Shown: positions 1-30,681 of the stretch, piece after piece | Numbering within the stretch: the first letter of the stretch is position 1 | Layout: the number at the start of each line of letters is the position of its first letter | Origin: a virus | Reading direction: 5' to 3' (one strand) | DNA: 64,000 bases | IMG/VR virus record: IMGVR_UViG_3300044470_000095 | Span: 5,624 to 69,623 of that record | Made by a program: the position numbers and the translations under genes | The notes under the pieces: generated by a model | Database searches by the model: none | Seen by the model: only the letters and a program-made list of their open reading frames with translations | What the model was told of the DNA's origin: nothing

Positions 1-64
1 CAGCAAGCGTGCGGCCGGAAATCTCGGCGGTGTACGTGGTGCGCTTTGTCAGTTCGATGTACAT
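1..64 (-). CDS. Partial early-left hypothetical protein (MYIELTKRTTY..., runs off window)
   Basis: ATG at 64 preceded by purine-rich GAAGAGAGC; frame open to window edge. Confidence 0.45.
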   Translation of the reverse strand, partial: MYIELTKRTTYTAEISGRTLA

Positions 65-508
65 GCTCTCTTCTGTATGACTTCGTTGAATTAGTGCCGG
101 TTACGTTTTCTCCGGCGCTCCCACAAAGGAGCCGTGCGCCATGTTTATCGGTCATCGAATGCATTACGCTTTGCAGACCTCTTTACTGCCGCAATTCAGT
201 GCAACCTCTGGTTGCCGTCAAGCCGTTCTATGGTCTACTGACTCCAGGCTTTCTCATGCCGCCAATTACCGCATCACCACTCCCGCCGGCATACTCGTGC
301 AGCCTTGCGCCGGAAACGCCATACACTTGCGTGTGCTGCAACGTATAATTCTTGCCGGTTACGTCTCCGGCGCGGACTTTCACCGCCGTCTTGTAGCCTT
401 GTGCCCGATAGGGGCTTTTTTGGTCTTCGACCGGCTTTCCTTCGACCGTCTACCTATCGTGTCCAGCATTAGCGCGGGGATTAGCTGGCGAATCTCATAT
501 TTACGCGC
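65..508 (-). ncRNA. Putative structured ncRNA cluster downstream of the hammerhead
   Basis: No credible ORF on the sense strand; many hairpins with GNRA-type loops; two copies of GCGCCGGAG(A/AAAA)CGTAACCGGCA at ~96-118 and ~353-373. Confidence 0.6.
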
Positions 509-560
509 GATTCCTACGCTTTCGCGTTTCGTCCGAATTTCACGGACTCATCAGGAAATC
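509..560 (-). ncRNA. Type I hammerhead ribozyme
   Basis: Minus strand reads GATTTC-CTGATGA-GTCCG(TGAAATT)CGGAC-GAAA-CGC(GAAA)GCG-TA-GGAATC: full core, stems I-III, GUA cleavage triplet. Confidence 0.92.
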
Positions 561-649
561 TTGCCGTCACGACCTCGGCTACGTGCTCCCTCAGGACTTC
601 CGCTTTCGCGGGTTGCAAGAGTCTTTCGAAAACTGCTTGCGGGTAAAAC

Positions 650-1015
650 TCAGTCTCCAGTCCAAACCGGCCTAAAATCGCGGCGCGGCTTTTGCAGATC
701 GACCGTGATCGGGTCGTAATCGACAAACGGAACCCGCAGTCCGGCAGCGCGCAACGCCTCCGGCGAGTCGTGCCGAACTTCTTCCACCTGGCTGTTCACA
801 TGCATTTCTTCCCAAGCCGTCTGCACGCCGTCGAGATAAACCGGAACGAGCTTGGTCTTGAAACCGAACTTGACGGCGTTGGCGTTGCGAATGATCGGAA
901 AACCAGTGCCGCACAGTGCTTCGATCATGCGTAAAACAGAGTTCCCCGCGTTCGCGCCGATAGTCTTTTGATCGCCGTTACCGAGGGCTACTTGCGGGGT
1001 CGTCGTTGTTTGCAT
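650..1015 (-). CDS. First gene of the pL operon, hypothetical protein (N position)
   Basis: 121-aa ORF directly after the pL promoter and an AC-rich leader. Confidence 0.75.
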   Translation of the reverse strand: MQTTTTPQVALGNGDQKTIGANAGNSVLRMIEALCGTGFPIIRNANAVKFGFKTKLVPVYLDGVQTAWEEMHVNSQVEEVRHDSPEALRAAGLRVPFVDYDPITVDLQKPRRDFRPVWTGD

Positions 1016-1048
1016 GATCTGACTGGCGGTTGGTGGGTCGATGAACGT

Positions 1049-1089
1049 ATAATAGCACTGCTATTTTGCATGTCAATAGCAAAGCTAGT
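1049..1089 (-). promoter_or_regulatory. pL promoter with OL operators
   Basis: TTGACA-N16-TATTAT with extended -10 TG; operators AATAGCACTGCTATT (1051-1065) and AATAGCAAAGCTAGT (1075-1089) match those at OR. Confidence 0.85.
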
Positions 1090-1217
1090 AAATAATTCGA
1101 AAAAGAGTAAAATATTCCCCAACCGCCGAAAAGCGGCGAAAAAATACCGGCGCAGGCCGGTGGATGTAGGTAGTTGATGTATCAGGTAGGCGAGGCGGCG
1201 CGAACCGCCCCGCGTTC

Positions 1218-1313
1218 CTAGGAAGTCATCAAGCCGATGAGAACTTGCAGGAGTGCTGCAAGCGCCCAAAGGTTGATTTCCACCTGTATTGCTTTGGTTT
1301 TCAGCTTAAACAT
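1218..1313 (-). CDS. 31-aa hydrophobic peptide (type I toxin-like) with a long structured leader
   Basis: MFKLKTKAIQVEINLWALAALLQVLIGLMTS: basic N-terminus plus one TM segment; GC hairpin after the stop. Confidence 0.5.
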   Translation of the reverse strand: MFKLKTKAIQVEINLWALAALLQVLIGLMTS

Positions 1314-1579
1314 GAATGTCTCACGAGTAAGCAGTCGCACCAGGCCTGAGCGACCACTATGGAAATGGTGGCCGTTCTTTTCAGCGGTTACGAAGTGGTC
1401 TGGCCTCACGGTCAGTTTTCTTTACCGCCTTGTAGCAGCACTACGCTACCCCTCGATGTGCGCACAAAGAGGGCGGATTACTCCCCGTCGCAGTGGCGGG
1501 GAGTTCCGAATTCAATTATTGAACGCTTGTTGGGCAGACTTCGTAGCTGTTGATGGCGACGATAACGCCATTGTTAGGG

Positions 1580-1843
1580 CTATTTTCGAGTTGCGTACCA
1601 TCCTCTTGCGTTCATGCAACTTGCAAACATGCTATTACGATTGCCGGCATTCGCATCATATGTGACTTGGTATTTTCTACCTTGCGCTGTCGCTAGGTTC
1701 TCCTGATATGCGCTTGCCGAATCCTGCATGCAGGCGTACTTATCTTGCGCAAACTCCCCTTGCGTGCCGCCGTCCTTGTGATAGATGGTTTGGCACCCAG
1801 CTAATCCCGTTGAAAATAAAATCGGAAGCAATATTTTTTTCAT
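1580..1843 (-). CDS. Small lipoprotein in the immunity region (possible superinfection exclusion)
   Basis: Lipobox LAGC after a hydrophobic signal; downstream of cI. Confidence 0.7.
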   Translation of the reverse strand: MKKILLPILFSTGLAGCQTIYHKDGGTQGEFAQDKYACMQDSASAYQENLATAQGRKYQVTYDANAGNRNSMFASCMNARGWYATRK

Positions 1844-1879
1844 ATTTCCCTTAGTTCGGCATTCGGCGTGCCGTTGCGC

Positions 1880-2242
1880 CTATTTCGATACCTTGCATGG
1901 AAAGGCTGCGTAAAGAGACCTTGCGACTAGTATTTCTGCTGAGAAGTTCCATTGATCTGGATGAGCTACAAGATAATTTTTAGTAATTGCAATAAGTTGG
2001 CCTGGCGTGACATTTTGCGGCGCGCAAATAGAAACGCCGTCAAGCGTGTCATAAACCCCGGTTATATAGCCAAGCAATTGAAATTCGAATTGATAGTCTT
2101 CCTGCGAAAGTGCGCGATTTTCCTTCACTCTATTGTCGGCCTCAATCCATTGATGAAGTTCGCTGCCAGTGTGAAAAGCGCCAGTTCCGGCCCCATGTGC
2201 GGAAAATGAAATAAAAGCAATGAGTGAAATTATTTTCTTCAT
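1880..2242 (-). CDS. Rap1a/Tai-family periplasmic immunity protein
   Basis: Signal peptide; TGxEL...GYITGVYD...ICAPxxVTxGQL...YLxxHP...AFPC pattern. Confidence 0.8.
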   Translation of the reverse strand: MKKIISLIAFISFSAHGAGTGAFHTGSELHQWIEADNRVKENRALSQEDYQFEFQLLGYITGVYDTLDGVSICAPQNVTPGQLIAITKNYLVAHPDQWNFSAEILVARSLYAAFPCKVSK

Positions 2243-2253
2243 GGCGTGTGCGC

Positions 2254-2757
2254 TTATTTCTCGGTAATTTTCGATTTTCCCGGCTTCTTTCCGCCAAATG
2301 GATTAGAGACGGATACGTTGCCAGGTTTTGAATCTGTCAGCATGTTGTTGGCACTATGCTCAAGCTCGTGCTGCTGTTCCTGGGATAATTGGCGATACAT
2401 CATAATCAGAGCTGCCTCTGGGCCGGTCAGATTTGTAAAGTTCATAACCAATTGACTTGGCGGCGTGGCGGCGGATGACGCTGCGTACTCAACAGCCATT
2501 TCAGCTAAAGTCGGACTGAAATCTCCAATCCTCACATTAAGCCCATCGGCAAATGCCTTTGCGGCCTTCAAGTTCAGTGATCGCTTGGCATTCAAATACT
2601 GCCAAACCATTCCTTGTGTTCCTATTTCAAACTGCAAACCAAAAGCACCCTGCGATAAATCTTGTTTTTCAAATAACGCTTTCAAGCGATTGGCATCCTC
2701 AACCTGCCAATCGTCCAATTTTGCTTTATTCGCTTTTGCTGGTTCTTTTTTCATCAT
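2254..2757 (-). CDS. cI: CI-like repressor (HTH, no S24 peptidase domain)
   Basis: LSQGAFG...QGMVWQYLNAKRSLN...FSPTLA HTH; divergent from cro. Confidence 0.85.
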   Translation of the reverse strand: MMKKEPAKANKAKLDDWQVEDANRLKALFEKQDLSQGAFGLQFEIGTQGMVWQYLNAKRSLNLKAAKAFADGLNVRIGDFSPTLAEMAVEYAASSAATPPSQLVMNFTNLTGPEAALIMMYRQLSQEQQHELEHSANNMLTDSKPGNVSVSNPFGGKKPGKSKITEK

Positions 2758-2760
2758 TCG

Positions 2761-2828
2761 AGCATAGCAATGCTATTTTAAAGTGCAACGAGCAAAGCTG
2801 TTGACATGATAAATAGCTGTGCTATTAT
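2761..2828. promoter_or_regulatory. OR region with pR, pRM and three operators
   Basis: pR TTGACA(2801)-N16-TATTAT; pRM TTGCAC-N16-TATGCT on minus strand; ATAGC-N3-GCTAT sites at ~2764 and ~2813, degenerate site at ~2789; both genes likely leaderless. Confidence 0.85.
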
Positions 2829-2834
2829 GTTTGC

Positions 2835-3071
2835 ATGGATATACAAACATACCTCACCGAAAACGACATTAGCAAAGCCGAATTTGCTCGGAAAATTGGC
2901 GTTTCAAGCGACCTTGTGTATCAGTGGATAAAGGGGTTACGCCCAGTCGCAATCCCGCATTGCAAAACAATATTTGCGGAAACAAAAGGTATTGTGACTC
3001 TTCAAATATTGCGTCCGAATGACTGGCAAAAAATCTGGCCCGAACTCTCCCAAACAGAGGTAGCGAAATGA
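2835..3071 (+). CDS. cro: Cro/YdaS-like HTH regulator
   Basis: SKAEFARKIGVSSDLVYQW...LRPNDWQKIWPEL. Confidence 0.9.
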   Translation: MDIQTYLTENDISKAEFARKIGVSSDLVYQWIKGLRPVAIPHCKTIFAETKGIVTLQILRPNDWQKIWPELSQTEVAK

Positions 3072-3229
3072 CCTGCCGCCGCTGCCAATCACCGGTCCCA
3101 ATCGCAATGAAAGCTCGCACAGATCCAGGCGAACAATCGTACTGCGCGCCGTGCGTCGAGACGATGGGCGAGGGATACGAGCGGAACCTGGGCGACGTGC
3201 TGGATTTGACGCCGCTTGAGTTTGAGTGA
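3068..3229 (+). CDS. Small CxxC...CxxC zinc-finger protein (53 aa)
   Basis: ATGA overlap with cro; MTCRRCQ...YCAPC. Confidence 0.65.
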   Translation: MTCRRCQSPVPIAMKARTDPGEQSYCAPCVETMGEGYERNLGDVLDLTPLEFE

Positions 3230-3303
3230 TTTGGTTTCGAGTTCATGAAAAAAATTTTCACATAAAACCGACCTTCAACCATCGTCAATTCGATTGCATC
3301 CAA

Positions 3304-3664
3304 ATGAAGACACTTGACTTACGCATCCGGCGCCCCATCAAACCGATCAATTCCGAGGACTGGAAGACATGGGACTCGGAAGCGAAGGTCATTACCGACA
3401 TGGTGAAAAGCAGCGGTCTCCAAGGCACAAAGCGGCGGCGCACGCCTCTCCGAGCGCGATATGGAGGCGTTGATGGACGGTTGCGGCAGCGAGTCGTGGA
3501 TTCACTATTGGCTGCTCAAGCGGGGCTATGACCCGCGATCACTGCGCCGGATCGAATCCGATATCGAAAAGGAAAATCGCGAACTCCGCGAAAAGCTGGC
3601 AACCGTCGAGGCTGAACGCGCAGTTGAGTTACGACTATTCACAAAATTGAGGAGCGCTGCGTGA
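3304..3664 (+). pseudogene. cII: CII-like regulator broken by a frameshifting internal deletion
   Basis: N-terminal (..KSSGL) and C-terminal (SKAQSGGARL..LMDGCGSE..RGYDPRSLRR) parts are in different frames, joined at TCTCCAAG ~3417-3424. Confidence 0.65.
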
Positions 3665-3894
3665 AAACTGCACTGACCGCCCAAGAAAAAAACGAAATAG
3701 TTCGCCATGCTTTGCTTGCCGAAGCCGGCGAATGGAATCCAATCAGCCCGACAGAACTTGCTCGAAAAATCAATCAACCCTGGTGTGTTATCGACGGCTT
3801 CGCAAGTTCGGCTGCGGTTTGCCCAATCCTGAAAAGGATCGGCGCGCAGAAAGCCGGTCGCGGATCGCACGTCAAATACTGGATGCCAAAATGA
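3661..3894 (+). CDS. Hypothetical protein (winged-HTH-like)
   Basis: GTGA overlap; coupled within the operon. Confidence 0.6.
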   Translation: MKTALTAQEKNEIVRHALLAEAGEWNPISPTELARKINQPWCVIDGFASSAAVCPILKRIGAQKAGRGSHVKYWMPK

Positions 3895-4268
3895 CGATTC
3901 GCATACCTCCCGCAAGGTGCGTCAATCAGCATCGCGTTGGCCGCTTCATATTCGAGCGCGGCCCGAAGTCGAAAGCGTCGATCTTGCAATTCATGCGCCG
4001 ACACTGCGCCGATTTTTCCGTGCATGAGGTCGTCAAGAAAATGATTGGTCTTGGCTTGATCGAAGAATTTGGCGGATTGCTTTATATCTGCGAAGAACTC
4101 AAGACGCACTATACCGACATCGACGCCGCCCGCTCCGCGCAGCAAGCGGTAATCACGCCGCCGCGCACGTTTGTTCGATCTGGAACGCTTGACTGCAAGG
4201 CTCTGTATGCCGGCGCGCTGGGGCGCATTGGCACGTTGCGGTCGCCATTGAATATGGGAAACCCATGA
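3891..4268 (+). CDS. Hypothetical protein
   Basis: ATGA overlaps at both ends. Confidence 0.6.
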   Translation: MTIRIPPARCVNQHRVGRFIFERGPKSKASILQFMRRHCADFSVHEVVKKMIGLGLIEEFGGLLYICEELKTHYTDIDAARSAQQAVITPPRTFVRSGTLDCKALYAGALGRIGTLRSPLNMGNP

Positions 4269-6868
4269 CTGACGCATACCACGAATTTTTGCGCGGCAAG
4301 ATCAAACTGGCGCAGCGCAAGGGTTTTGACGTTCCTCTTGACGAAATAAATTCCGGTCTGAAGCCTCACACTCGGGACATTGTCCGGTGGGCACTTGCCG
4401 GCGGCCAGCGCGCAATCTTCGCTTCGTTTGGCCTGCACAAGACGGCAACGCAACTCGAAATTATGAGGCTCATTGGCGCGCATTACGATGGTCTGCGCGG
4501 CATCGTTTTGCCGCTTGGGGTGCGCCAAGAGTTCATGCGCGAGGTTGTAAAACGCTTTACCGGAGAATATGCCGTCGACCTTCGCTTTATTCGCTCCGAT
4601 GCCGAGATCGGCGACGACCGCACTATCTACATGACGAATTACGAATCGGTGCGCGAAGGCAAGATCGATATTTCAAAATTTCGCGCAACAACACTTGATG
4701 AGGCGAGCGTTTTACGCAGTTACGGTAGCAAGACCTATCAGGAGTTCTTGCCCGCGTTCGAGCCGGTCGAGTTCAAATTCGTTGCTACCGCAACGCCAAG
4801 CCCCAACCGCTTTAAAGAACTGATCCATTACGCCGGCTACCTGGGTGTCATGGATACGGGGCAAGCGCTTACACGATTCTTCCAGCGCGACAGCGAGAAG
4901 GCTGGAAATCTCACGCTCTACCCGCACAAAGAAGCTGAATTCTGGATGTGGGTTGCGAGCTGGGCGGTTTTCATTCAGCGACCAAGCGATCTTGGCTATT
5001 CCGACGAAGGCTACGAACTTCCGCCGCTCGACGTCCGCTATCACGAGGTGCCGAGCAATTACGCTGCCGCCGGCGCCGAAAAGAACGGTCAAGGCCTGTT
5101 GATACCGAATGTCGCAATGAGTTTGTCATCCGCCGCCGGCGAGAAACGCCACAGCATGGATGCGCGGGTCGCCAAGGTTGCGGAAATCATGGCCGAGTCG
5201 CCAGACGATCATTTCGTGATCTGGCACGATTTGGAAGACGAGCGCCACGCGATTCAACGGGAAATTTCCAGTGTGGTCAGTGTTTGGGGTACGCAGGAAC
5301 TCGAAGAGAGAGAGCAGCGCATTGCGGATTTCAGCGACGGCAAGATCAAGGATTTATCGACCAAGCCCATCATCGCCGGGTCGGGGTGCAATTTCCAAGT
5401 GCATTGCCACCGCGAGATATTCGCTGGCATCGGCTTCAAATTCAACGACTTCATTCAGGCGATCCACCGTGTTCAGCGCTTCCAGCAAGCGCACCCGGTA
5501 CGGATCGACATCGTTCACACCGAGGTCGAGCGCAAGGTGTTGGCTGACCTGCAGGCGAAATGGCGACAACACGATGAGATGCAGGTCAAGATGTCCGAAA
5601 TCATCCGCACCTACGGCCTGGACCAGCTGCAGATGCAAGACACGCTGGCGCGCACCATCGGCGTCGAGCGCGCCGAGGTTCGCGGAAAATACTTCACGGT
5701 TGCCAACAACGATTGCGTGCTGGAAGCGCGGACGAAGGAAGCGAACTCGGTCGGCTTGATCGTGACATCAGTTCCTTTCGCGAACCATTATGAGTATACG
5801 CCGAGCTACAACGACTTCGGCCACACCCAGGATAACAATCATTTCTGGTCGCAGATGGATTTCCTGACTCCTGAGCTTTACCGGATACTGCAACCTGGTC
5901 GAATCTACGCCTGCCACGTCAAGGACCGGATCAATTTCGGCAACGTGACCGGATTCGGCTTGCCGACCAGCAGTCCGTTCCACTGCGAAGCGACCATGCA
6001 CGGTATCAAGCACGGTTTCGACTATCTCGGCGTCATCACCGTTGTAACGGACGTGGTGCGCGAGAACAATCAAACCTACCGCCTCGGATACTCGGAAGTC
6101 TGCAAGGACGGCACGAAGATGAGCGTCGGCTCGCCGGAATACATTATTCTTTTTCACAAGCCGCAGTCGGATCGATCGCGCGGCTATGCCGACGTGCCAG
6201 TCAGTAAGGAAAAGCCTCTATGTATGGACGATGACGGCGTTATAGGTCCATTTGATAGAAGAGCGGCGCCTGTTGCTGGGACCGGCTACAGCGTCGCGCG
6301 CTGGCAGATTGATGCGCATGCATTCTGGCGCTCAAGCGGCAACCGGCTGTTGACGGCTGAAGAGTTGGCGGCCTACGGAACGGCGAAACTGGCCAAGATG
6401 TTCACCGAGATGTCGCTGAACAACGTCTACGACTACGAATACCATGTGCGCGTCGGCGAAGCGCTGCTGGCCAAGAAGTCGCTGCCCGCCGATTACATGA
6501 GCCTGGCGCCCGGCAGCAACGATCCGGTGGTGTGGCACGACATCGTGCGCATGCGGACATTGAATGGCGAGCAGTCGGCGCGCGCGGTCGAGAAACACGT
6601 ATGTCCGTTCCAGATCGATATCGTCGACCGCCTCATCACACGCTACAGCAACCCAGGTGATTTGGTCTACGATCCGTTCGCCGGATTGGGTACAGTGCCA
6701 GTACGTGCGCTGAAGCTGGGGCGTCGTGGTGCCGGCTCCGAATTGAGTTCCGCCTACTTTGCCGACCAGGTGCATTACCTGCAGGCGATGGAGCGCGAAA
6801 TCAGCATGCCGACACTTTTTGATTTCGAGCAAATGGAAGCGTTGGAAGCGATGGAGGCCGTAGCGTGA
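4265..6868 (+). CDS. SNF2-type helicase fused to a beta-class N4/N6 DNA methyltransferase
   Basis: Helicase motifs FGLHKT, LDEAS, TATPSPN, QAIHRVQRF; MTase TSVPF (motif IV variant) and DPFAGLGT (motif I). Confidence 0.9.
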   Translation: MTDAYHEFLRGKIKLAQRKGFDVPLDEINSGLKPHTRDIVRWALAGGQRAIFASFGLHKTATQLEIMRLIGAHYDGLRGIVLPLGVRQEFMREVVKRFTGEYAVDLRFIRSDAEIGDDRTIYMTNYESVREGKIDISKFRATTLDEASVLRSYGSKTYQEFLPAFEPVEFKFVATATPSPNRFKELIHYAGYLGVMDTGQALTRFFQRDSEKAGNLTLYPHKEAEFWMWVASWAVFIQRPSDLGYSDEGYELPPLDVRYHEVPSNYAAAGAEKNGQGLLIPNVAMSLSSAAGEKRHSMDARVAKVAEIMAESPDDHFVIWHDLEDERHAIQREISSVVSVWGTQELEEREQRIADFSDGKIKDLSTKPIIAGSGCNFQVHCHREIFAGIGFKFNDFIQAIHRVQRFQQAHPVRIDIVHTEVERKVLADLQAKWRQHDEMQVKMSEIIRTYGLDQLQMQDTLARTIGVERAEVRGKYFTVANNDCVLEARTKEANSVGLIVTSVPFANHYEYTPSYNDFGHTQDNNHFWSQMDFLTPELYRILQPGRIYACHVKDRINFGNVTGFGLPTSSPFHCEATMHGIKHGFDYLGVITVVTDVVRENNQTYRLGYSEVCKDGTKMSVGSPEYIILFHKPQSDRSRGYADVPVSKEKPLCMDDDGVIGPFDRRAAPVAGTGYSVARWQIDAHAFWRSSGNRLLTAEELAAYGTAKLAKMFTEMSLNNVYDYEYHVRVGEALLAKKSLPADYMSLAPGSNDPVVWHDIVRMRTLNGEQSARAVEKHVCPFQIDIVDRLITRYSNPGDLVYDPFAGLGTVPVRALKLGRRGAGSELSSAYFADQVHYLQAMEREISMPTLFDFEQMEALEAMEAVA

Positions 6869-17241: not shown

Positions 17242-17322
17242 ACCCTTTTACCTCAGTGGCAGAGGAATCCGATGCGCGCTACAACCGGACAGTCGGTGGT
17301 TCGATTCCACCAAGGGGCACCA
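17242..17322 (+). tRNA. Degenerate tRNA with an expanded anticodon loop (possibly derived from Arg-ACG)
   Basis: Intact D arm CCTC/GAGG, T arm GGTGG-TTCGATT-CCACC and encoded CCA; ~14-nt anticodon loop; 1-72 mismatch. Confidence 0.7.
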
Positions 17323-17369: not shown

Positions 17370-17456
17370 GGATATTTGGCTGAGTGGACTAAGGCAGCGG
17401 CTTGCTAAGCCGTAGGGTGTAATGCCCCGCACGTTCGAATCGTGCAATATCCGCCA
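17370..17456 (+). tRNA. tRNA-Ser(GCT)
   Basis: GGATATT/AATATCC acceptor stem, GCGGC-TTGCTAA-GCCGT, long variable arm, TTCGAAT, GCCA end. Confidence 0.95.
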
Positions 17457-19788: not shown

Positions 19789-21219
19789 ATGTCTGAAATC
19801 TCATTGAATGGAAGCTGCGTCGGAAACGCTCTATCCGATCTGTTGATGTATGACGAGCTGCAACCAGGCGACGAAGTAAGCTATCAGGCTTGCAAAAATA
19901 TATTCATGTATCACCCGCTTGGCCGGAAAATGGCCGAGCTTCCCGTTTCAATGGCAATGAGCCAGCGCCGGGAGATTACGGTTCCTGGTGCGCCTGAAAA
20001 GATGATTGTCGACGCATTCCTGCGAGAATGGGATGCGCTGCAAGCCGATAGGCATATTGCGAACGTCAAGGTATTGAGCCGCGTGTATGGCGTGGCATCG
20101 ATCATCTATGGCGCTGAGGGCGTGCCGACTGATAGGCCAATCGATCCGAACTCGCTATTCGATCTGGAAATTTATTTTAACGATCTTGACCCGCTCAATA
20201 CCGCCGGCAGTCTGGTATTGAATCAAGACCCGAATGCGCCTGATTTTCAGAAACATGCCGCAATCACAGTAGCGGGACAGGTATATCATCGCAGCCGTTC
20301 ATGTACGATCATGAACGAAAACCCGATTTATATCGGATACACCAATTCCGGCTTCGGCTATGTCGGGCGGTCAGTCTATCAGCGCGCATTTTTCCCGCTG
20401 AAGTCGTTTGTCCAGTCGATGATTACCGATGACTTGGTGACGAAAAAAGCCGGTGTATTGGTCGCCAAGATGAAGCAAGCTGGGTCTGTGGTTGACCGGG
20501 CGATGCTGGCGTTTCAGGGAATCAAGCGTAATCTTTTGAAAGAAGCCAAGACGACAAATGTCATTGGCATCGGCACTGATGAGTCTATCGAGACTCTCAA
20601 TATGCAAAACGCAGATACGGCCATGACCGTTGCGCGCAAGAATATTCTGGAAAACATTGCCGCAGCTTCGGCGATGCCAGCAAAATTGCTTAATTCGGAA
20701 TCGTTCGCGGAAGGGTTCGGAGAGGGCACGGAAGACGCGAAGGATATTGTTCGATTCCTGAACGGCATGCGTATTGAAATGCAGCCGCTCTACGATTTTT
20801 TCGATCCGATTGTCATGCGCCGCGCATGGAATCCCGAGTTCTATAAAACTGTGCAAGCAGAAATCCCAGAATATCGGAAAATCGGCTACACGCAAGCGTT
20901 TTACGAATGGAAGAATGCGTTCAAGGCGGTTTGGCCGAATTTGATCGAGGAAGCGCCAGGCGAGGCCAGCAAGGAAGATAAAGTAAAAATGGATGCGGCG
21001 GTCGCCATTCTCGAAACGCTGATGCCGCAGATGGACCCAGACAACAAGATCGCGTTAATGGATTGGTTCTCCTCCAACATCGGAGAGTGCAAGAATATTT
21101 TCCCGCACCCGCTTGTGTTGGATATGGATGCTTTGCGTAATTACGAACCGCCAGCACCGCCGTCAATGGGCGAGGATGGATCAGATGGCAAGTCGGAATC
21201 TACGGAAACCAAGGCTTGA
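19789..21219 (+). CDS. Portal protein (DUF1073-like)
   Basis: Follows terL; SRVYG, YHRSR, GRSVYQR patterns. Confidence 0.85.
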   Translation: MSEISLNGSCVGNALSDLLMYDELQPGDEVSYQACKNIFMYHPLGRKMAELPVSMAMSQRREITVPGAPEKMIVDAFLREWDALQADRHIANVKVLSRVYGVASIIYGAEGVPTDRPIDPNSLFDLEIYFNDLDPLNTAGSLVLNQDPNAPDFQKHAAITVAGQVYHRSRSCTIMNENPIYIGYTNSGFGYVGRSVYQRAFFPLKSFVQSMITDDLVTKKAGVLVAKMKQAGSVVDRAMLAFQGIKRNLLKEAKTTNVIGIGTDESIETLNMQNADTAMTVARKNILENIAAASAMPAKLLNSESFAEGFGEGTEDAKDIVRFLNGMRIEMQPLYDFFDPIVMRRAWNPEFYKTVQAEIPEYRKIGYTQAFYEWKNAFKAVWPNLIEEAPGEASKEDKVKMDAAVAILETLMPQMDPDNKIALMDWFSSNIGECKNIFPHPLVLDMDALRNYEPPAPPSMGEDGSDGKSESTETKA

Positions 21220-21491
21220 GACGTTGGTTTCTTGGTCTTTGGCTTGATTCCTTGTTGTGATTCTGGCTTTGCTGGCGGGGCATCAATTCCCAATGCAATC
21301 TGGATATCATATTGCGGTGATTGATCCGGTCGAATGATTTCAATTTCCGTTGTTGGTGGCAAATCGAAATGCTTGATTGCGCGGCGCACGATGATTTCAA
21401 ATGATCGTTGCGATAGCGGCCCGGACAGATGCACAGACGCATCGATCTGCGAGCGGACAAAGCCTTTGATGTCTTCGATGTTGTGTGTCAT
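21141..21491 (-). CDS. Hypothetical protein; paralog of 21488-21787
   Basis: Shared IK.F(V/I)R.Q...PL..RS..II..RAI..F.LP.T pattern. Confidence 0.65.
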   Translation of the reverse strand: MTHNIEDIKGFVRSQIDASVHLSGPLSQRSFEIIVRRAIKHFDLPPTTEIEIIRPDQSPQYDIQIALGIDAPPAKPESQQGIKPKTKKPTSQALVSVDSDLPSDPSSPIDGGAGGS

Positions 21492-21787
21492 TTTTCGTTT
21501 CCTTGTATTTGAAAATAGTCATCGGCATCACGGTATCCGGGGATGTCGATTTCAATGTCAGTTAGATAATCCCTAGTATATTGGGAAGTATCGCTTCTAA
21601 AAGTGACGATGATACTGCGGCTGAATGAAACGACGATATCTGCCGTTTCTGGAAGTTCAAACTTTCGGATGGCACGGTCGCGGATTATTGAATACGAACG
21701 CTCGGTTAATGGCGCTTTAGTAAGCTTCATGGTTGATTCTACTTGTTCACGAATAAACTTTTTAACCTCTTCCTTGCTGTCGGTCAT
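21488..21787 (-). CDS. Hypothetical protein; paralog of 21141-21491
   Basis: ATGA-coupled; shared motif. Confidence 0.7.
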   Translation of the reverse strand: MTDSKEEVKKFIREQVESTMKLTKAPLTERSYSIIRDRAIRKFELPETADIVVSFSRSIIVTFRSDTSQYTRDYLTDIEIDIPGYRDADDYFQIQGNEK

Positions 21788-22113
21788 AGGATTCCTATTC
21801 GGTTCGAATTGTGAATGTGTATGCAGTATGTAATTGGCGGAAGCTCGCGAACTCCGAGAAAATATTCAAGCGCATCGGGAGAGCAGGTTTTTGTATCGAT
21901 TTCGACGGTTGCCATGAATCCATCGCTGCGCCGACTCACGCCAGCAAGCTTGACGCCATTCGGCATTAAATGCGCGCACAGTGCCATAAACGACGCCTCT
22001 TGTGATATTGGAGAGTCTGGCGCTTTGGTTAGCAGCAAATCAAGCATCGCGTCATTGAGATAGCCATGCAACCACGATAGTAGTTGTTCTTGCGTGGCGT
22101 TATCGGGCGGCAT
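21784..22113 (-). CDS. Hypothetical protein
   Basis: Likely start MPPDNATQ with AGGGG RBS. Confidence 0.55.
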   Translation of the reverse strand: MPPDNATQEQLLSWLHGYLNDAMLDLLLTKAPDSPISQEASFMALCAHLMPNGVKLAGVSRRSDGFMATVEIDTKTCSPDALEYFLGVRELPPITYCIHIHNSNRIGIL

Positions 22114-22439
22114 GTTCAAACCCCTTTTTGGTTGCGTAGTTGGTGCATTAAACACATTTGCGTTTTCTCCCAATCAATCAATACCCGGGGCGTAATCGGG
22201 AGTTTTTTGGGGATAACCATCACAATGGTGCGCCGTAATACGAATTTTCGTGCCGATCCTTGAGCTTAACCAGTTTTTTAGCGGCGCGAATAAAAATTGC
22301 GAGTAATTCCGCGCCTTGCATGTGAGTTCGTTCTTTCATATGTCGTCCGCGCACTCTTGCGTTTTTTCTTTGCCGCAAGTGCATTTGAAATCATAATCGT
22401 CGTTTATATCGACTTGATCGCGGTCGTTTAGTTCGATGT

Positions 22440-22745
22440 TCATCGCGTCACGATCCTTATGTATTTTGGAGTAACAAGCGTGATGGTGTAAGTATTGCCC
22501 ATTCCGCAGATGTATTGATACGATGCTTGCTCTTGTTGTACAACATACAATAGCTTATTGCACGGATAGCCAAAATTGATTATCTCGCCAGACATCGCAA
22601 TAGCGCGCTTTTCGCTCAGTTGCCACCACTTTGATTGATCTTGATTCTGGAGCAAGTAAATATGGAAATGTTCAGACAGCGGAATTGATTGAGATCGGGA
22701 GAGGCTTGCGACAGCTATTAAGATGCAAAAAATAAAGGTTTTCAT
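22440..22745 (-). CDS. Small exported protein
   Basis: Signal-peptide-like N-terminus; GYPC...YICG Cys pair. Confidence 0.6.
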   Translation of the reverse strand: MKTFIFCILIAVASLSRSQSIPLSEHFHIYLLQNQDQSKWWQLSEKRAIAMSGEIINFGYPCNKLLYVVQQEQASYQYICGMGNTYTITLVTPKYIRIVTR

Positions 22746-22903
22746 TTCGATTCCCTTTCGGCAATAAGTTCTTTGTAAGCCTTGGATTTATAAAGCCCGG
22801 ACACGACCATGCTGACCTTCATCGCGGCTTGTGTGCCGGATAAGGCGGGATTGGCTCGCATCAAGCGAATTGCTTTTTCGGTTTTGGTCAATGTAATCTC
22901 CAT
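22742..22903 (-). CDS. Small HTH-like protein (53 aa) heading the reverse cassette
   Basis: MEITLTKTEKAIRLMRANPALSGTQAAMKV..SGLYKSK; ATGA overlap with the next gene. Confidence 0.55.
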   Translation of the reverse strand: MEITLTKTEKAIRLMRANPALSGTQAAMKVSMVVSGLYKSKAYKELIAERESK

Positions 22904-22943
22904 AAAAATAACTACACCACAGTATATACACGAATAGGCGATT

Positions 22944-23753
22944 GTGGCAAATTTTTACGATACGATCACCGAAGCGATCCGGGATATCGAGGCGCATGGC
23001 TTCGACAGCGAGCAGCGGATCACACGATGGATCGGATTAATTGAGCAAGCCGCAAAAGATTCGATGACGCCGGAGCATGTGGTAAATCAGGCCCTATCCG
23101 GCATGATGCAAGGCATCTACAAAAAGATGATCGAGCGCGGCGGCATCATGAAAATGCACAAGGGTATTTCGCGCTTTACGATTGACCGGCTGTCGCCGAA
23201 ACTGCGCAATGAGTTGGATCGCCGGATCATGGCAAGCGCCCAGCTTATCAAATTAAACCGCCAGCAAGCCATTGCGCAGACCATCCAGCGGTTTAGCGGG
23301 TGGGCATCATCAATACCTGGGGGCGGCAGCAAAGCGGTTGATGTGATGGACGTTAAGGCCAATCTCAAGAAGTCGTTTTCAGCGCAGACTTATGAATATC
23401 GCCGAGTTGCTATTGACCAGGGGCATAAACTAGTTGCCTCGCTGAATGAAATCATTGCGGTAGATGGTGGAGCGATTGCAGGGGAATGGAATAGCCATTG
23501 GCGGCAAAAAAATTACTCTTTTCGGCCAGACCATAAAGCGCGGGATGGCAAGGTCTATGCAATTCGCGGTAATTGGGCCTTAGAAAAAGGCTTGATGACA
23601 AAAGGCGCAGGTTACTACGACGATATGACGGCTGCGGGTGAAGAGGTATTTTGCAGATGCAGTGTTACGTGGCTTTACAATCTCCGAGACCTTCCACCCG
23701 AGATGCTCACGGCGGCGGGTGAAAAAGCTCTCGAATCAGCAAGAATGCAATAA
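22944..23753 (+). CDS. Head morphogenesis protein (MuF/SPP1 gp7-like)
   Basis: W.SHW..Y..RPDH..RDGK.Y...GEEVFCRC. Confidence 0.85.
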   Translation: MANFYDTITEAIRDIEAHGFDSEQRITRWIGLIEQAAKDSMTPEHVVNQALSGMMQGIYKKMIERGGIMKMHKGISRFTIDRLSPKLRNELDRRIMASAQLIKLNRQQAIAQTIQRFSGWASSIPGGGSKAVDVMDVKANLKKSFSAQTYEYRRVAIDQGHKLVASLNEIIAVDGGAIAGEWNSHWRQKNYSFRPDHKARDGKVYAIRGNWALEKGLMTKGAGYYDDMTAAGEEVFCRCSVTWLYNLRDLPPEMLTAAGEKALESARMQ

Positions 23754-23773
23754 ACCAAACAACAAACAAACAC

Positions 23774-23799
23774 AAGCCGCCTTCGGGCGGTTTTTTATT
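23774..23799 (+). terminator. Rho-independent terminator
   Basis: GCCGCC-TTCG-GGCGG followed by T6. Confidence 0.8.
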
Positions 23800-23809
23800 G
23801 GGAAAACAA

Positions 23810-25567
23810 ATGACAGATGCGCTTATTCCAAAAGACGCCGCTGGAATCGCGTTAATGTCGAACGGCAAGGTGCTGTTGCTGAAGCGTGGCGACGGCGGCG
23901 ATTACCCCGGTCATTGGTGCTTCCCAGGTGGCCATTCTGAAATAGGCGAGAGCGCAGAGCAAACGGCCCTACGCGAGACTTTGGAAGAGTCGGGCTATGC
24001 TGTTATAGGCAGCTTGAAACAAATCGCTTACACGGCAAATGGCGATATCAATTTCACGACATTCGGCAAGAACGTGCAGGAATTTGAGCCGACGCTTTCG
24101 GATGAACATGCCGAGGCCGGATGGTTTGAATCCGGCAAATACCCGGAACCATTGCACCCCGGATGCAAGCTGATTCTCGACGGCCCGGCGCTTGACGCAA
24201 TCGATATCCGCAAGATGAACGAGCTGGACATCGCTCGCGCAATGTCTGCGGGGTACGTTTCATCGCCGCAACGCTATATGAATGTGTGGCTGTTCGCAAT
24301 CCGCATTACCGGAACCGGCGTAGCGTATCGCAAGAGCCTGGAAGAGTTCGTTTTTCGCAATCCAGAGATGTATCTCAACGATGATTTTCTGGCGCGATGC
24401 AACGGCCTGCAAGTGATTGCCGAGCATCCAGAAAAAGCCACGCTCAACAACGCGGAATTTCAAGATAGAACAATCGGCTCGATCTTCTTGCCCTATATCC
24501 AAGGCAATGAGGTTTGGGGCATAGCAAAAATTTATGACGCCAAAGCGGCGGATGTCATGGCGAAATTCCAGCTATCGACATCGCCCACTGTCGTATTCAG
24601 CAATCCAGTAGCAAACAGCACTATCACGCTGGATGATGGTGCAGCCCTTTTAATCGAGGGCAAACCAAGTCTTCTCGACCACGTAGCAATTTGTATTCGC
24701 GGTGTTTGGGATAAAGGCGGTCCGCCATCCGGCGTGTCAACTAATCAACTCGAAGGAAATGAAATGACAGAAGCAGAACTGAAAGCCAAAGCGGACGCCG
24801 AGGCGCAGGAAAAGGAAGCCGAAGCGAAAGCCAAGGCCAAGGCAGACAGCGAAGCCGCTGCCAAGGCCGATGCAGAAACTGCGCGTTGGGGTAAATTCAT
24901 GGATACCCTTGACAAGATCAATAAGCGCATGGATTCGCTTGAATCGAATCTGCCAGCGCCCACGATGACTGCTGCCGACAAGGCCAAGAAGGACGCAGAG
25001 GAAGAAGCCAAGAAAAAGGCTGACGCCGACATCGAAGAAAAAAAGAAAGTCGCCGCTGACAAAGCGAAAAAGGACGCGGAAGAAGACGCCAAGGCAAAAG
25101 CCGACGCGGAAGAAACCCGCAAGCGCATCGCCGATCTGGAAGCAAATTTGCCGAAGCGCGTTTCGGATGACGACTATGCGCAGATGGCCGATTGCCAAAT
25201 GAAAGCCGATAGCGTCTATTCGGCGTTCGGAGATTCAGCACCATCTCCGATTCGGAGTGAAAACTTGATGTCGTACAAAAAGCGCTTGCTGCACGGCTTG
25301 AAATCGAATAGCCCAGCATGGAAAGCGGTCGACATTTACAAGCTCGATGATTCCGTTGTTGGCATCGCCGAAGCGCAAATTTACGCCGACTCGATCCAAG
25401 TCGCAAATCATCCTATCGATATCGCCGCAGGCACTTTGCGCAAGATCGAAAAGAAAGACGAAAACGGTCAATTGATCCGCACTTTCGTCGGTGACCCGGA
25501 AGCGTGGATGGACGCATTCAAATCTCCCAACATGAAGCAAGTCGGCATCTCGAAAGGTAATCAATAA
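23810..25567 (+). CDS. NUDIX hydrolase fused to a DUF2213-type prohead protease/scaffold
   Basis: Nudix box GGHSEIGESAEQTALRETLEESG; LLDHVAIC..GVWDK; KADAE-rich coiled coil. Confidence 0.85.
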   Translation: MTDALIPKDAAGIALMSNGKVLLLKRGDGGDYPGHWCFPGGHSEIGESAEQTALRETLEESGYAVIGSLKQIAYTANGDINFTTFGKNVQEFEPTLSDEHAEAGWFESGKYPEPLHPGCKLILDGPALDAIDIRKMNELDIARAMSAGYVSSPQRYMNVWLFAIRITGTGVAYRKSLEEFVFRNPEMYLNDDFLARCNGLQVIAEHPEKATLNNAEFQDRTIGSIFLPYIQGNEVWGIAKIYDAKAADVMAKFQLSTSPTVVFSNPVANSTITLDDGAALLIEGKPSLLDHVAICIRGVWDKGGPPSGVSTNQLEGNEMTEAELKAKADAEAQEKEAEAKAKAKADSEAAAKADAETARWGKFMDTLDKINKRMDSLESNLPAPTMTAADKAKKDAEEEAKKKADADIEEKKKVAADKAKKDAEEDAKAKADAEETRKRIADLEANLPKRVSDDDYAQMADCQMKADSVYSAFGDSAPSPIRSENLMSYKKRLLHGLKSNSPAWKAVDIYKLDDSVVGIAEAQIYADSIQVANHPIDIAAGTLRKIEKKDENGQLIRTFVGDPEAWMDAFKSPNMKQVGISKGNQ

Positions 25568-26451
25568 TGGCCTCGCAAATCTCTTTTAACCCGATGCTGA
25601 CTACTACCGTCGGCAATGGCTTCAGCATCCAGTCTGAAGGCTACGTTCAAGGCCAAGCCCTTGACGACCCGGCAATCCGCTATCAATTGGCAAACGGCGT
25701 TTTGGCGTCTACGGAAACATTCCCGATGTGGGGCGGCGTGGCAATTTACGAAAATATTCCGAATCCGGGGCTGAACAACGTCATGGGCGGGAATGTCGGC
25801 CGCGCCACAAGCAACGCCAATATCACCGGCTTCAGCGTGTTCAACCAGGGTCGCGCGATGGTCAACTGGCCGCAAAACCAAGTCCCTATCGCACTGCCGT
25901 TGATGTCCGTTCCTCTTTTCCGGCTCGGTTCTGGTGCGCGCATTCCGGTCGCTTGCGATTCATCGCTGGCATCGTTGCAAGGCGGTCTGATTAACCAGCA
26001 GGTCACATGGGACATCAACAACCAAGTGCTGCAACCGTATGACGCATCGACCGCAACGTATTCGTTGACCTCGATCACTTCCAGCTACTCAGCGACTACC
26101 GGGCTTTACACGTTCGCCGTGGTCGCTGCCGTCGCTACTCTGGTTGGTGGCGTCGGTGATAGCATCAATATCGGCGGCGTTACCGGCACTGGCGCTGCGC
26201 TGGTCAACGGCGATCAGGTCGTGACCGCATGGACTGACAGCCAGCATTTCAGCTTCCAGGTGGCGGCGGCATCGGGCGCAATCGCAACCGGCGCGCTGTC
26301 CGGCACGTTGGTATTGAATTCGGGCACTGGCGCATTGAATGTCAAGGTTCTTGAGGTCAATGTCGGCAATAGCAAAACTGTCGTGTGGAGTCCTACTTTG
26401 CTTACCGCAAACTGGAATTACAGCGGTACGGTTGCTCTCATTCAAATCTAA
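25567..26451 (+). CDS. Head decoration/cement protein
   Basis: Between protease and capsid genes; PMWGGVAI, RLGSGARIPV. Confidence 0.75.
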   Translation: MASQISFNPMLTTTVGNGFSIQSEGYVQGQALDDPAIRYQLANGVLASTETFPMWGGVAIYENIPNPGLNNVMGGNVGRATSNANITGFSVFNQGRAMVNWPQNQVPIALPLMSVPLFRLGSGARIPVACDSSLASLQGGLINQQVTWDINNQVLQPYDASTATYSLTSITSSYSATTGLYTFAVVAAVATLVGGVGDSINIGGVTGTGAALVNGDQVVTAWTDSQHFSFQVAAASGAIATGALSGTLVLNSGTGALNVKVLEVNVGNSKTVVWSPTLLTANWNYSGTVALIQI

Positions 26452-26463
26452 GGAGCCAAGGAA

Positions 26464-27480
26464 ATGGCAAATCAAGCATCAAGCTACACAATCCAGAATC
26501 CCGCGTATATCGTACCGGAAATTCTGACCACCTACCAGCAAGCGTCGGGCGCATTCAACCTGCTTGCTGGCGGCAATCCAATGGTGCGCCTGAGTGATGG
26601 CGACTTGCAGGTCTACATCAAACATTTGGACGTTCGCACCAAAGTCGGTGCCGGCCAATCCGCCGCAAATCTGTTGCCTGGCGTGGACATCACGACCGAC
26701 ATGATTTCGACGCCGACGTACATGTTTCGCATGCGCTCGGAATACGATCACCATGACACGGCGTCGATGGGTCGCTGGGGCATCTCGATTGTGGAAGCGC
26801 AACGTCTTGGCGCTCGCCAAGGTATTTTCCAGCAATTGCGCAACGTCCTTTTGTTCGGGTTCAACCCGGCAAACGGCGAAGGTTTGATGAATGCGCAATT
26901 CGCCACTACGATGAATCTGCCTGCCGATACCAATGGCAATACCTCGATCAGCACTTACGACAGCGGCCAGTTGGGGCAATTCATCGCCATTCAAATCGGC
27001 GCGGCGAAAGTTCGTTGCAATCAAATCGGCATGCCTGCCCGCGTGACCATTTTGACGACTCAACATGTCATGGAAATGCTGTCGTATCAGGTCGTGCAGT
27101 TGACTCAATACCAGCGTCCAGGCGCTGGCGTTACGTCGCCTGCTGGCGTGGCAACCGATGTCGCCGGATGGATGGGCGACGAGGTAACATGGTCTTGCGA
27201 TGATACATTGATCGGCAAGGGTGCTGGCGGTAACGACGTTATCATCATCTCGATTCCCGAGGTCAAAAAGCCGGTTGTGGACAAGATCAACACAAATTAC
27301 TTTGCACAGATCACTCCCGGCCTCGCCGCGTGCAATTTGCAATACATGGACATGGCCGCGCCGCGTGAACTGCCCTGCCCGATTCCGGGCGGCGCAATCG
27401 ATATCACGTCGGAACTGTGCGCAACATCCGGATGGGCTGTTCGCGGCCAAGCAACAACCATCATTTCCTGCGCATTTTAG
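26464..27480 (+). CDS. Major capsid protein
   Basis: 338 aa, expected position, followed by a terminator. Confidence 0.8.
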   Translation: MANQASSYTIQNPAYIVPEILTTYQQASGAFNLLAGGNPMVRLSDGDLQVYIKHLDVRTKVGAGQSAANLLPGVDITTDMISTPTYMFRMRSEYDHHDTASMGRWGISIVEAQRLGARQGIFQQLRNVLLFGFNPANGEGLMNAQFATTMNLPADTNGNTSISTYDSGQLGQFIAIQIGAAKVRCNQIGMPARVTILTTQHVMEMLSYQVVQLTQYQRPGAGVTSPAGVATDVAGWMGDEVTWSCDDTLIGKGAGGNDVIIISIPEVKKPVVDKINTNYFAQITPGLAACNLQYMDMAAPRELPCPIPGGAIDITSELCATSGWAVRGQATTIISCAF

Positions 27481-27500
27481 TCCAGGTGGGATGCTGCATT

Positions 27501-27523
27501 AAGGACGCTTCGGCGTCCTTTTC
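27501..27523 (+). terminator. Terminator after the capsid gene
   Basis: AAGGACGC-TTCG-GCGTCCTT-TT. Confidence 0.7.
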
Positions 27524-27619
27524 CATTTGCGGAGAGGATAGGCTAGATCGGTCGACAAGCGAGTTCCCTGCTCGTTTCCTCTCCCATCATTTTCAGGGTG
27601 TTTAATTAGGGATTAAATC

Positions 27620-28141
27620 ATGGCAAAGCTATACGTCGCAAATTGCACGAAACAAAAACACGAATTTTTGTACAACCCACCAGAGCAAAAAGGCCACATA
27701 AAGGAACCGATTGACAGCGGGCGGCAGGAAGTCATCTGGAAGAAAGACGGCTCGGCAACGCTTGACGAGTTGATGCTCATCGTGGAGCAGCACAGCATTT
27801 ATGGGATGGTCAACGTGAGAGACATTGACCGCACCAAACGCTTTACGCATTTTTGCTACAGCATCGACAAGCCTATTAATATCGAAAAAATCATGTACAC
27901 CGTTGAGGCAAACGACGCTTTTCTTGAAGCTCAATCGCTCGATTTGCGCAAGGAAACGGCGTCGATGATTAGCCACTCTCTTTCTACCGTCGCGGCGCAA
28001 CAAGACAATGCGCTTACGCACATGGAAATCGAGGTCAAGGAACTTGCGCCAGCCGGGAAAGAGGCTCGTGTCGATGAAACAATTGTGATTGAACAGGGGC
28101 GAAATTCTCAGCGCGGTCGCGGTCACCCACGCAATAATTAA
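27620..28141 (+). CDS. Virion morphogenesis hypothetical protein
   Basis: KLYVANCTKQ.H.F.Y; post-capsid position. Confidence 0.7.
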   Translation: MAKLYVANCTKQKHEFLYNPPEQKGHIKEPIDSGRQEVIWKKDGSATLDELMLIVEQHSIYGMVNVRDIDRTKRFTHFCYSIDKPINIEKIMYTVEANDAFLEAQSLDLRKETASMISHSLSTVAAQQDNALTHMEIEVKELAPAGKEARVDETIVIEQGRNSQRGRGHPRNN

Positions 28142-28143
28142 TC

Positions 28144-30268: not shown

Positions 30269-30312
30269 TTTTCAACCATCCGCATTTGCGGATTTTTATT
30301 TAGGAAACTAAA

Positions 30313-30672
30313 ATGCCGCAATCTCCAATCGCAACAGAATCTTTTGCCAAACTCCCGTCCGGGAAAACGGCACCGTTGAATATGGATGCCACTGGCAATC
30401 AATTGATGGCCAGTGGTTTGAACTCATCCCTGAATATCACGGCGGCAACCGTCGTAAAAGCAACGCCAGGCCGACTTGTGCGCGTCAACGTCCTGACCGC
30501 TGGTGCTGCCGGGACTGCAAGCGATTGCGCAACTATAGGCGCGGTAGCAGCCGCCAATCTCATCTACAACATCCCGGCGACTGTCGGCATTTATTACCTT
30601 GATTGGCCGTGCACAGTCGGCATCGTCATCACGCCAGGTGCATCGCAGGTACTTTCCGTTTCATTCATTTAA
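30313..30672 (+). CDS. Small beta-rich virion protein
   Basis: LNITAATVVKATPGRLVRVNV. Confidence 0.7.
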   Translation: MPQSPIATESFAKLPSGKTAPLNMDATGNQLMASGLNSSLNITAATVVKATPGRLVRVNVLTAGAAGTASDCATIGAVAAANLIYNIPATVGIYYLDWPCTVGIVITPGASQVLSVSFI

Positions 30673-30681
30673 GGCCCAATC

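Follow-up and report, generated by a model that had tools for sequence, protein, structure and literature searches.

The DNA analyzed here is a 64-kb stretch of a virus (hereafter the window), corresponding to bases 5624-69623 of the 69.6-kb IMG/VR record IMGVR_UViG_3300044470_000095. On its minus strand, between a gene of 121 amino acids (aa) and one of 298 aa, lies a gap of 585 nucleotides (nt) devoid of credible genes. The gap carries two copies of a two-hairpin motif, set 255 nt apart in one operon. An initial annotation had remarked on a repeated terminal hairpin at this place; this hairpin is an instance of a conserved, covarying element residing in the early operons of many temperate phages.

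The window contains just two occurrences of the string GCCGGAG(N)CGTAACCGGC, one at 371..354 and the other at 116..96, and 100 dinucleotide shuffles gave none. A covariance model built from other phages assigns 61.5 bits to copy 1 and 40.6 bits to copy 2, the next best match in the window scoring 10.8 bits. Each copy is preceded by ACG and an abutting hairpin (389..372; 135..117), and followed by A-NN-AAUU, as the initial annotation had it (AAUU at 350..347 and 92..89). Neither copy is followed by a U-tract, and hence no intrinsic terminator was recognized at the two sites. The two copies, and the putative RNA units which they would terminate, are as follows (P1 and P2, first and second hairpin; bp, base pairs).

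389..353, minus strand: motif copy 1; ACG at 389..387, P1 at 386..372 (4-bp stem, 7-nt loop)
371..354, minus strand: P2 of copy 1; GCCGG, loop AGACGUAA, CCGGC; conserved A at 353
135..95, minus strand: motif copy 2; ACG at 135..133, P1 at 132..117 (6-bp stem, 4-nt loop)
116..96, minus strand: P2 of copy 2; loop AGAAAACGUAA; conserved A at 95
514..347, minus strand: putative RNA unit 1, about 168 nt, predicted boundaries; 5' hairpin formed by 513..509 with 494..490, motif copy 1 at the 3' end
346..93, minus strand: putative RNA unit 2, about 250 nt, predicted boundaries; opens with a UGCAGC...GCUGCA stem (340..298), ends in motif copy 2

The body of unit 1 has no similarity elsewhere by blastn, its motif part alone matching other loci, and the body of unit 2 is likewise unique against other loci. 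That two dissimilar modules share a 3' element, as originally noted, is borne out, the element being a widespread covarying motif which has no Rfam family. Unit 2 may be closed by a 7-bp stem, formed by UGAAUUG (about 198..192, located by eye, and containing AAUU at 196..193) and UAAUUCA at 93..87, the latter lying just beyond the 3' end given above.

Structure and covariation of the motif

The motif is made up of ACG, a variable hairpin (P1), a 5-bp hairpin (P2) with the loop AG(N)CGUAA, and a final A. It was collected by an exact-pattern scan of IMG/VR, which gave at least 120 contigs, and a covariance model was built from 26 sequences. In real instances a hairpin of variable sequence adjoins the element, and ACG stands before this hairpin. 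Among the 124 pattern matches listed (IMG/VR plus the window and loci L003 and L004), the usual loop is the 8-nt AGACGUAA; the 1-nt loop insert is the same in 75 of them, and the loop is 7 nt long in just 15. Run on 100 loci, the model found 90 matches at E ≤ 0.01, 48 of which reach at least 40 bits; in 100 sources chosen from earlier matches it found 104 matches at E ≤ 1e-5, 96 of them distinct.

In the 96 distinct rows each of the six modelled P1 pairs has changes in both partners, and the covariation score is 0.238 versus 0.066 in shuffles, 0 of 500 shuffles scoring as high. P2 is invariant in this set because the pattern used to fetch the sequences fixed it. When the P2 stem was left free (51 loci), GCUGG/CCAGC was found in 20 loci, GCCGG/CCGGC in 17, GCGGG/CCCGC in 6, UCCGG/CCGGA and GCCGU/GCGGC in 1 each, and stems with a wobble or a mismatch in 6. 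The covariation check on homologs suggested by the initial annotation thus gave compensatory changes in both P1 and P2.

Covariation alone cannot separate RNA from single-stranded DNA of the same strand, and P2 looks like a palindrome (GCCGG...CCGGC), as would suit a site acting in duplex or single-stranded DNA, either a protein operator or a priming signal. Such a DNA-level role is the least probable of the explanations considered: the motif is always co-directional with flanking genes, G-U wobble pairs occur on the sense strand only, and a variable abutting hairpin flanked by conserved single-stranded ACG and A ill fits a duplex operator.

The unpaired residues are close to invariant. With the loop left free, ACGU is kept in 57 of 58 matches and the 5' ACG in all 58. 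Of 135 distinct instances, 87% have A directly after P2, and in the same set G accounts for 4-18% of residues at positions +2 to +8 after the motif, against a background of 28%. ACG can pair with the CGU of the loop to form a putative pseudoknot; as both sides are invariant, no covariation is obtainable for it. A chance control, in which the loop U of the pattern was changed to A, C or G, gave 115 loci, none of which was judged a member, because the ACG-plus-P1 context was absent. The invariance of ACG, of AG..CGUAA and of the final A calls for a specific partner or a tertiary fold.

A further reading turns to the anticodon arm of transfer RNA (tRNA). The motif might mimic the arm of tRNA-Thr(CGU) paired to the codon ACG, and serve as decoy or handle for a tRNA-directed host enzyme or for the ribosome. 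It has a 5-bp stem, an invariant CGUAA at the 3' side of the loop (anticodon plus A37 and A38) and an invariant complementary ACG, and host tRNA-Thr(CGU) genes have YUCGUAA loops. The motif is moreover co-located with phage genes for tRNAs and transfer-messenger RNA (tmRNA), and counter-defence genes are common in early operons. The match fails in the details, the loop being of 8 rather than 7 nt in most instances and the U33 position being occupied by G. The anticodon stems of host tRNA-Thr(CGU), GCGCA in Pseudomonas, Janthinobacterium and Citrobacter, are unlike P2, and the first codon position is A in 63%, G in 25%, C in 8% and U in 4%, with no compensating change in the loop. We regard the mimicry as improbable.

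Distribution of the motif

A first blastn search against phage genomes matched about 40 nt around copy 1 to Bordetella phages, in gaps left unannotated. The motif was detected in well over 100 viral contigs, and in prophages of Pseudomonas, Burkholderiales and enteric bacteria; named phages which carry it are Bordetella phages, the Enterobacter phages Arya and Tyrion, and P1, P7, D6, RCS47 and SJ46. In Escherichia coli it is found in 542 of 5426 complete genomes, and 549 of the 558 places lie on plasmids of P1 size (P1-like phage-plasmids), with no annotation underneath among the 25 rows listed. In species genomes 29 of 40 pattern matches were judged real, and these reside in Pseudomonas, Alcaligenaceae, Oxalobacteraceae, Burkholderiaceae, Halopseudomonas, Aliidiomarina, Citrobacter, and in one Geminicoccus; the 28 loci passed to the covariance model all matched. 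The remaining 11 (Streptomyces, Nocardia, Acidobacteria, Wenzhouxiangella) were judged to be false positives, matching coding sequences.

Rfam 15 has nothing at the motif at E ≤ 10 in window positions 1-1300 or in L145, at E ≤ 1 in P1, Arya and IFTN2, and at gathering level in 18 genome loci. The initial annotation could assign the cluster to no named Rfam family; the two-hairpin motif is covered by no family of Rfam 15. Full-text literature searches, which included the motif sequence, retrieved no description, supplementary lists of candidate RNAs (e.g. a survey of 224 candidates) being outside their scope. As far as Rfam 15 and text searches reach, the motif is undescribed.

Genomic context of the motif

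The motif is located in early-left operons between repressor and recombination genes, its neighbors being on the same strand. A CI-like repressor lies upstream in 15 of 60 loci, on the strand of the motif in 13; a RecE-like exonuclease was found in 12 of the 60 (12 of 12 on the motif's strand), and annealing proteins in 11 and 5, always on the motif's strand. Each complete genome has a single locus, with one copy in P1, IFTN2 and Arya and one strong match in PHB04. Close paired copies such as those of the window are found also in L081, a provirus with two adjacent copies, and in L154, L006, L024 and L078.

In five loci a tRNA starts 4-6 nt past the motif (Arg, Arg, Asn in P1, Met, Met), and 18 of 155 loci have tRNAs or tmRNAs at a distance of up to 1.5 kb, almost always on the same strand. 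In P1 the motif resides in the leader of the ban operon, about 610 nt past C1-controlled promoters and the annotated 'dicF-like region', 4 nt before tRNA-Asn, with tRNA-Thr next. In Pseudomonas tandem arrays, the next conserved block begins 5-6 nt past the preceding motif copy.

The motif might instead control elongation or termination of transcription in cis. The nascent module could bind RNA polymerase or block the loading of Rho, allowing put- or nut-like read-through of early-left terminators. It is found on the sense strand, downstream of the promoter, in operons under repressor control, and near-invariant unpaired nucleotides in phages of many hosts fit a conserved host machine. Its flanks are C/A-rich and G-poor, presumably resembling Rho-loading sites, and some Pseudomonas loci have a strong hairpin plus U-tract 50-60 nt further on. 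Two observations argue against a put- or nut-type antiterminator. Genomes have one locus, not one copy per early operon (window, P1, IFTN2, Arya; the two copies of L081 are adjacent), and tRNAs start 4-6 nt past the motif in five loci, where RNase P would sever the tether to the polymerase. In addition, an intrinsic terminator after the motif was sought and rejected, terminator-like sites occurring within 200 nt downstream in 13 of 82 instances versus 16 of 82 in the antisense control, and the best score of the model in the HK022 early region is 7.5 bits. Control of elongation or termination is in our judgement rather unlikely.

Alternatively, the motif could be a small riboswitch-like aptamer for a common metabolite or ion, tuning the next early gene. 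The motif folds compactly in about 45 nt, its conserved junction and loop nucleotides being set in variable helices, which is reminiscent of small riboswitch classes, and 29 of 81 instances have a start codon within 80 nt downstream. One subfamily has, adjoining the ribosome-binding site, a GCCGGC hairpin that might exchange pairing with P2; in the window, pairing is possible between 373..362 and 318..307 (inverted repeat I7). The spacing between motif and start codon is, however, not fixed: it varies between 19 and about 300 nt, and for 17 of 81 instances the next 400 nt contain no gene. The genes that follow are unrelated to one another, some copies precede tRNAs, no consistent expression platform was seen, and no Rfam riboswitch matched. 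An aptamer is deemed as improbable as the tRNA mimicry.

Additional features were noticed around the motif. In PHB04 (L004) a 2.7-kb stretch (480-3180) is nearly gene-free, and contains tRNA-Met, tRNA-Asn, tRNA-Pro, a permuted tmRNA (tag ANDDYIRAAA) and the motif, along with two unexplained gaps of about 480 and 670 nt. In the Pseudomonas prophages L145, L132, L139, L149, L160, L163 and L142 an invariant block of about 43 nt lies 60-100 nt 5' of the motif. It begins with GAUGCGGACGAAAC and ends with CUGCAUCA, folds as a 7-bp stem with an inner hairpin, and has no Rfam match; in tandem arrays this block sets in 5-6 nt past a preceding motif copy, and in L142 it is preceded by a tRNA-like fold. 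A short block, CAACAGGUAAG, is common to enteric loci. It is found right after the motif in L027, L082, L101 and L167, and at about 1258-1282 in L126 (P1); its position relative to the motif varies, which suggests shuffled RNA modules. In two loci, L003 (1161-1234, minus; 100 bits) and L156 (1448-1521, minus; 77 bits), a Burkholderiales-2 RNA (RF02917) precedes the motif by 0.5-1.3 kb, on the opposite strand.

The gap and its hammerhead ribozyme

The coordinates and strings of the initial annotation were confirmed, on the minus strand, and so was its description of the gap as poor in open reading frames (ORFs). None of the ORFs that overlap the gap (192 aa on the plus strand; 100, 70 and 51 aa) has a PHROG match, and the GC content at third codon positions (GC3) of the 192-aa ORF is 0.53, similar to background, versus 0.66-0.73 in the flanking genes. 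The gap had also been called dense in hairpins. The listed hairpins are all present, CGCGAAAGCG at 610..601 and 526..517, ACACGCAAGUGU at 334..323, and UGCAGC/GCUGCA at 340..335 and 303..298, but the folding energy is no better than chance, the z-score of 514..66 relative to shuffled sequences being -0.72 on the minus and -1.19 on the plus strand, neither significant. As the region folds no better than shuffled sequence, the evidence for RNA structure is comparative, not thermodynamic. By blastn, region 660..60 matched the other loci analyzed only at the motif and at the core of a hammerhead ribozyme, and the phage collection at the motif alone. Weak Rfam matches to sR21 and Ms_AS-8 (window 1-1300) were dismissed.

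The initial annotation had predicted a ribozyme in the gap. A permissive Rfam scan of positions 1-1300, complemented by reading by hand, identified it as a type-I hammerhead.

560..509, minus strand: type-I hammerhead ribozyme
560..555 with 514..509, minus strand: stem I, 6 bp
554..548, minus strand: CUGAUGA
547..543 with 535..531, minus strand: stem II, 5 bp, loop at 542..536
530..527, minus strand: GAAA
526..524 with 519..517, minus strand: stem III, 3 bp plus A-U, GAAA loop
516 and 515, minus strand: U16.1 and A17

The cmscan match to Hammerhead_3 (573..521, 24.6 bits, E = 0.016; a lower clan match is hidden) does not reach the gathering score of 48.5. Other viral hammerheads of canonical appearance, with the same core, also remain below it (35.2 and 28.7 bits). 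The conserved core is complete (CUGAUGA, GAAA, H17), and the pairs adjacent to it (1.1-2.1, 10.1-11.1, 15.1-16.1) are standard Watson-Crick pairs, G514-C555, G547-C531 and A527-U516. Stems II and III are closed and appear in the minimum-energy fold; stem I is open. Core nucleotides and standard core-adjacent pairs are what the part of Perreault et al. 2011 (PMC3088659) considered here asks of a hammerhead, and on these grounds the ribozyme of the window is accepted as canonical. Judging from its sequence, it should cleave between 515 and 514. Core and stem II are 97% identical over 33 nt to hammerheads of viral contig L288. The latter has, within about 5 kb (1892-6179), five exact-pattern hammerheads and one divergent copy, with stem II and loop in common with the window's. 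As a known kind of element, the hammerhead is by itself ordinary.

The idea of a polycistronic RNA released in pieces by ribozymes was not sustained: the one ribozyme found precedes the first unit, and no known element separates the units or follows them. A general link between hammerhead and motif was rejected as well. There are 0 motif matches (E ≤ 0.1) in the 100 loci searched of 120 hammerhead-bearing viral loci, and a scan for hammerhead cores in the window and 123 other loci, 120 of them fetched by the motif pattern, picked up hammerhead-like cores in 5 of the 124, only that of the window being convincing. The absence of the motif from hammerhead loci bears also on the notion that the module itself is a new small self-cleaving ribozyme which frees the units. 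It is small, has invariant unpaired nucleotides set in variable helices, and lies at unit boundaries beside processing elements, a hammerhead here and tRNAs elsewhere. The motif shows no enrichment near hammerheads and no resemblance to a known class of ribozyme, and nothing points to a cleavage site; we consider a ribozyme highly improbable.

Genes flanking the gap

The gene layout is that of a lambdoid early-left operon. Its features are the following.

1076..1049, minus strand: sigma-70-type promoter, TTGACA, 16 nt, TATTAT, 11 of 12 consensus positions, TG before the -10 box
1050-1065 and 1075-1090: inverted repeat I2, operator-like in look, overlapping the promoter
1015..650, minus strand: 121-aa gene, first of the operon, GC3 0.66
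1..64, minus strand: 298-aa gene, ATG at 64..62, extending past the window edge and followed by a truncated RecT-like gene
2254..2757, minus strand: cI-like gene, upstream of the promoter
2835..3071, plus strand: cro-like gene with YdaS/HTH matches, facing the cI-like gene

The promoter, a strong one of the repressor type, is presumed to be the early-left (PL-like) promoter of the whole unit. The product of the 121-aa gene has no Pfam or PHROG match, and no relative among viral contigs. The 298-aa product weakly matches phrog_2889 and sulfatase-modifying-factor-like proteins, and has one relative (L128), at a locus with no motif match in the covariance-model search. The RecT-like fragment (75 aa) matches phrog_148 at 6.7e-14.

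About 10 nt past the stop codon of the 121-aa gene (652..650), and upstream of the hammerhead, an imperfect palindromic hairpin without U-tract lies at 615-640 (minus). Genes for a Rap1a-immunity-like protein (1880-2242, minus; PF18602, 1.2e-17) and an 87-aa lipoprotein (1580-1843, minus) are set between the cI-like gene and the early-left promoter, a moron-like position. To the left of the window (L002, 1-4600), beyond the 75-aa RecT-like gene, a block of lower GC content encodes 295-aa zinc-finger transposase-like, 245-aa hexapeptide-repeat and 366-aa protease-like ORFs; it may be a prophage end or an insertion. Elsewhere, the window has an int-alpA RNA (27531-27598, plus; 40.5 bits) and two tRNA genes (17242-17319 and 17370-17453, both plus).

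Processing of the early transcript

The reading that we favor, tentatively, is that the gap yields discrete processed RNAs, of which the motif is the structured, factor-binding 3' end. The gap would be transcribed from the PL-like promoter within the early-left operon. Cleavage of this transcript by the hammerhead after A515 would leave the ribozyme at the 3' end of the 121-aa mRNA, and the downstream RNA would start with a 5'-OH at G514, so that the hammerhead would supply the 5' end of unit 1. By fold prediction, the first bases of this RNA can re-pair into the 5' hairpin. The downstream RNA would consist of two units with unrelated bodies, each ending in the same 3' module followed by a G-poor single strand.

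The module would form the structured 3' terminus of discrete, stable RNAs excised from early transcripts. Directly past its 3' side a host enzyme would cleave, namely RNase P at loci with a tRNA 4-6 nt on, and probably RNase E in the A/U-rich tail here. The module would block 3' exonucleases, and a conserved host factor would bind to its invariant unpaired nucleotides. The occurrence of the motif in stretches rich in stable RNAs, as the tRNAs and tmRNA of PHB04, or the dicF-like region and tRNAs of the P1 ban leader, is counted in favor of an end-of-unit position.

Several points weigh against processed RNAs ending in the module. A tRNA directly follows the motif in only 5 of 155 loci, and a start codon with a ribosome-binding site is found at most 80 nt past it in 29 of 81 instances, so that the motif is often part of a plain 5' untranslated region. 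A block to exonucleases needs no near-invariant loop and flank nucleotides across a wide range of hosts, which argues for a more specific recognition. The AAUU following both window copies is a presumed look-alike of an RNase E site, and the folding energy of the region is unexceptional. As regards the putative pseudoknot, a degenerate copy of L006 has its loop changed to AGU with no compensating change. Finally, we infer transcription, cleavage and unit ends in this phage, as protection of the RNAs and any binding partner, from DNA sequence.

A wider proposal, possible but somewhat more doubtful than the processing of the gap into discrete RNAs, is that the module represents a new class of compact, probably pseudoknotted RNA, through which phages of beta- and gammaproteobacteria, among them P1, would contact a single conserved machine of the host, giving unrelated early non-coding RNAs a common handle. 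The machine could be RNase P or RNase E in processing, an enzyme directed at tRNA, the ribosome (with ACG and CGU in contact much as codon and anticodon are), RNA polymerase, or Rho. A specific partner is implied by unpaired nucleotides which are near-invariant in hosts ranging from Bordetella to Escherichia. Its identification might uncover a new mode of processing, stabilization or deployment of early non-coding RNAs by phages, and since the motif is present in the model phage P1, its role is directly testable.

Comparison with known systems

Hammerheads flank genes in prophage transcripts, according to the part of Perreault et al. 2011 (PMC3088659) considered here. The window hammerhead shares with those described there the canonical core, the three helices, the intergenic site in a polycistronic phage transcript and the presumed role of cutting long transcripts into pieces, but is present in one copy, and is predicted to release non-coding RNA rather than a gene.

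HK022 put, as outlined in the portion of PMC9378689 used here, is a 73-nt RNA folding into a V-shaped pair of long stem-loops with a triplex. Both put and the motif are cis-encoded RNAs with two stem-loops, set in lambdoid early operons, which need no phage protein and would have a conserved host machine as target. In contrast to put, the motif is smaller and folds differently, having neither the two long stem-loops nor the triplex; put has left and right copies, the motif one locus per genome, and tRNAs abut the motif. Identity with put was rejected, no sequence or structure match being found in HK022 positions 20000-32000 (best score, 7.5 bits).

The pemK RNA motif (RF02913) was considered because P1 (GGUGAAA..CC) weakly resembles the last pemK hairpin. 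Membership was rejected: the match was found in one Pseudomonas locus only, at 17.9 bits versus a gathering score of 34.8 (E = 1.2), and both P2 and ACG of the motif fall outside it.

Small RNAs processed from early or immunity transcripts of prophages include DicF of Qin and the C4 RNA of P1 and P7, the latter matured by RNase P. Like these, the units proposed here would be non-coding, would lie within prophage operons under repressor control, and would be released by RNases of the host. They differ in that neither DicF nor C4 of Rfam matches at the motif, and in that the part conserved here is a 3' structural module common to unrelated RNA bodies.

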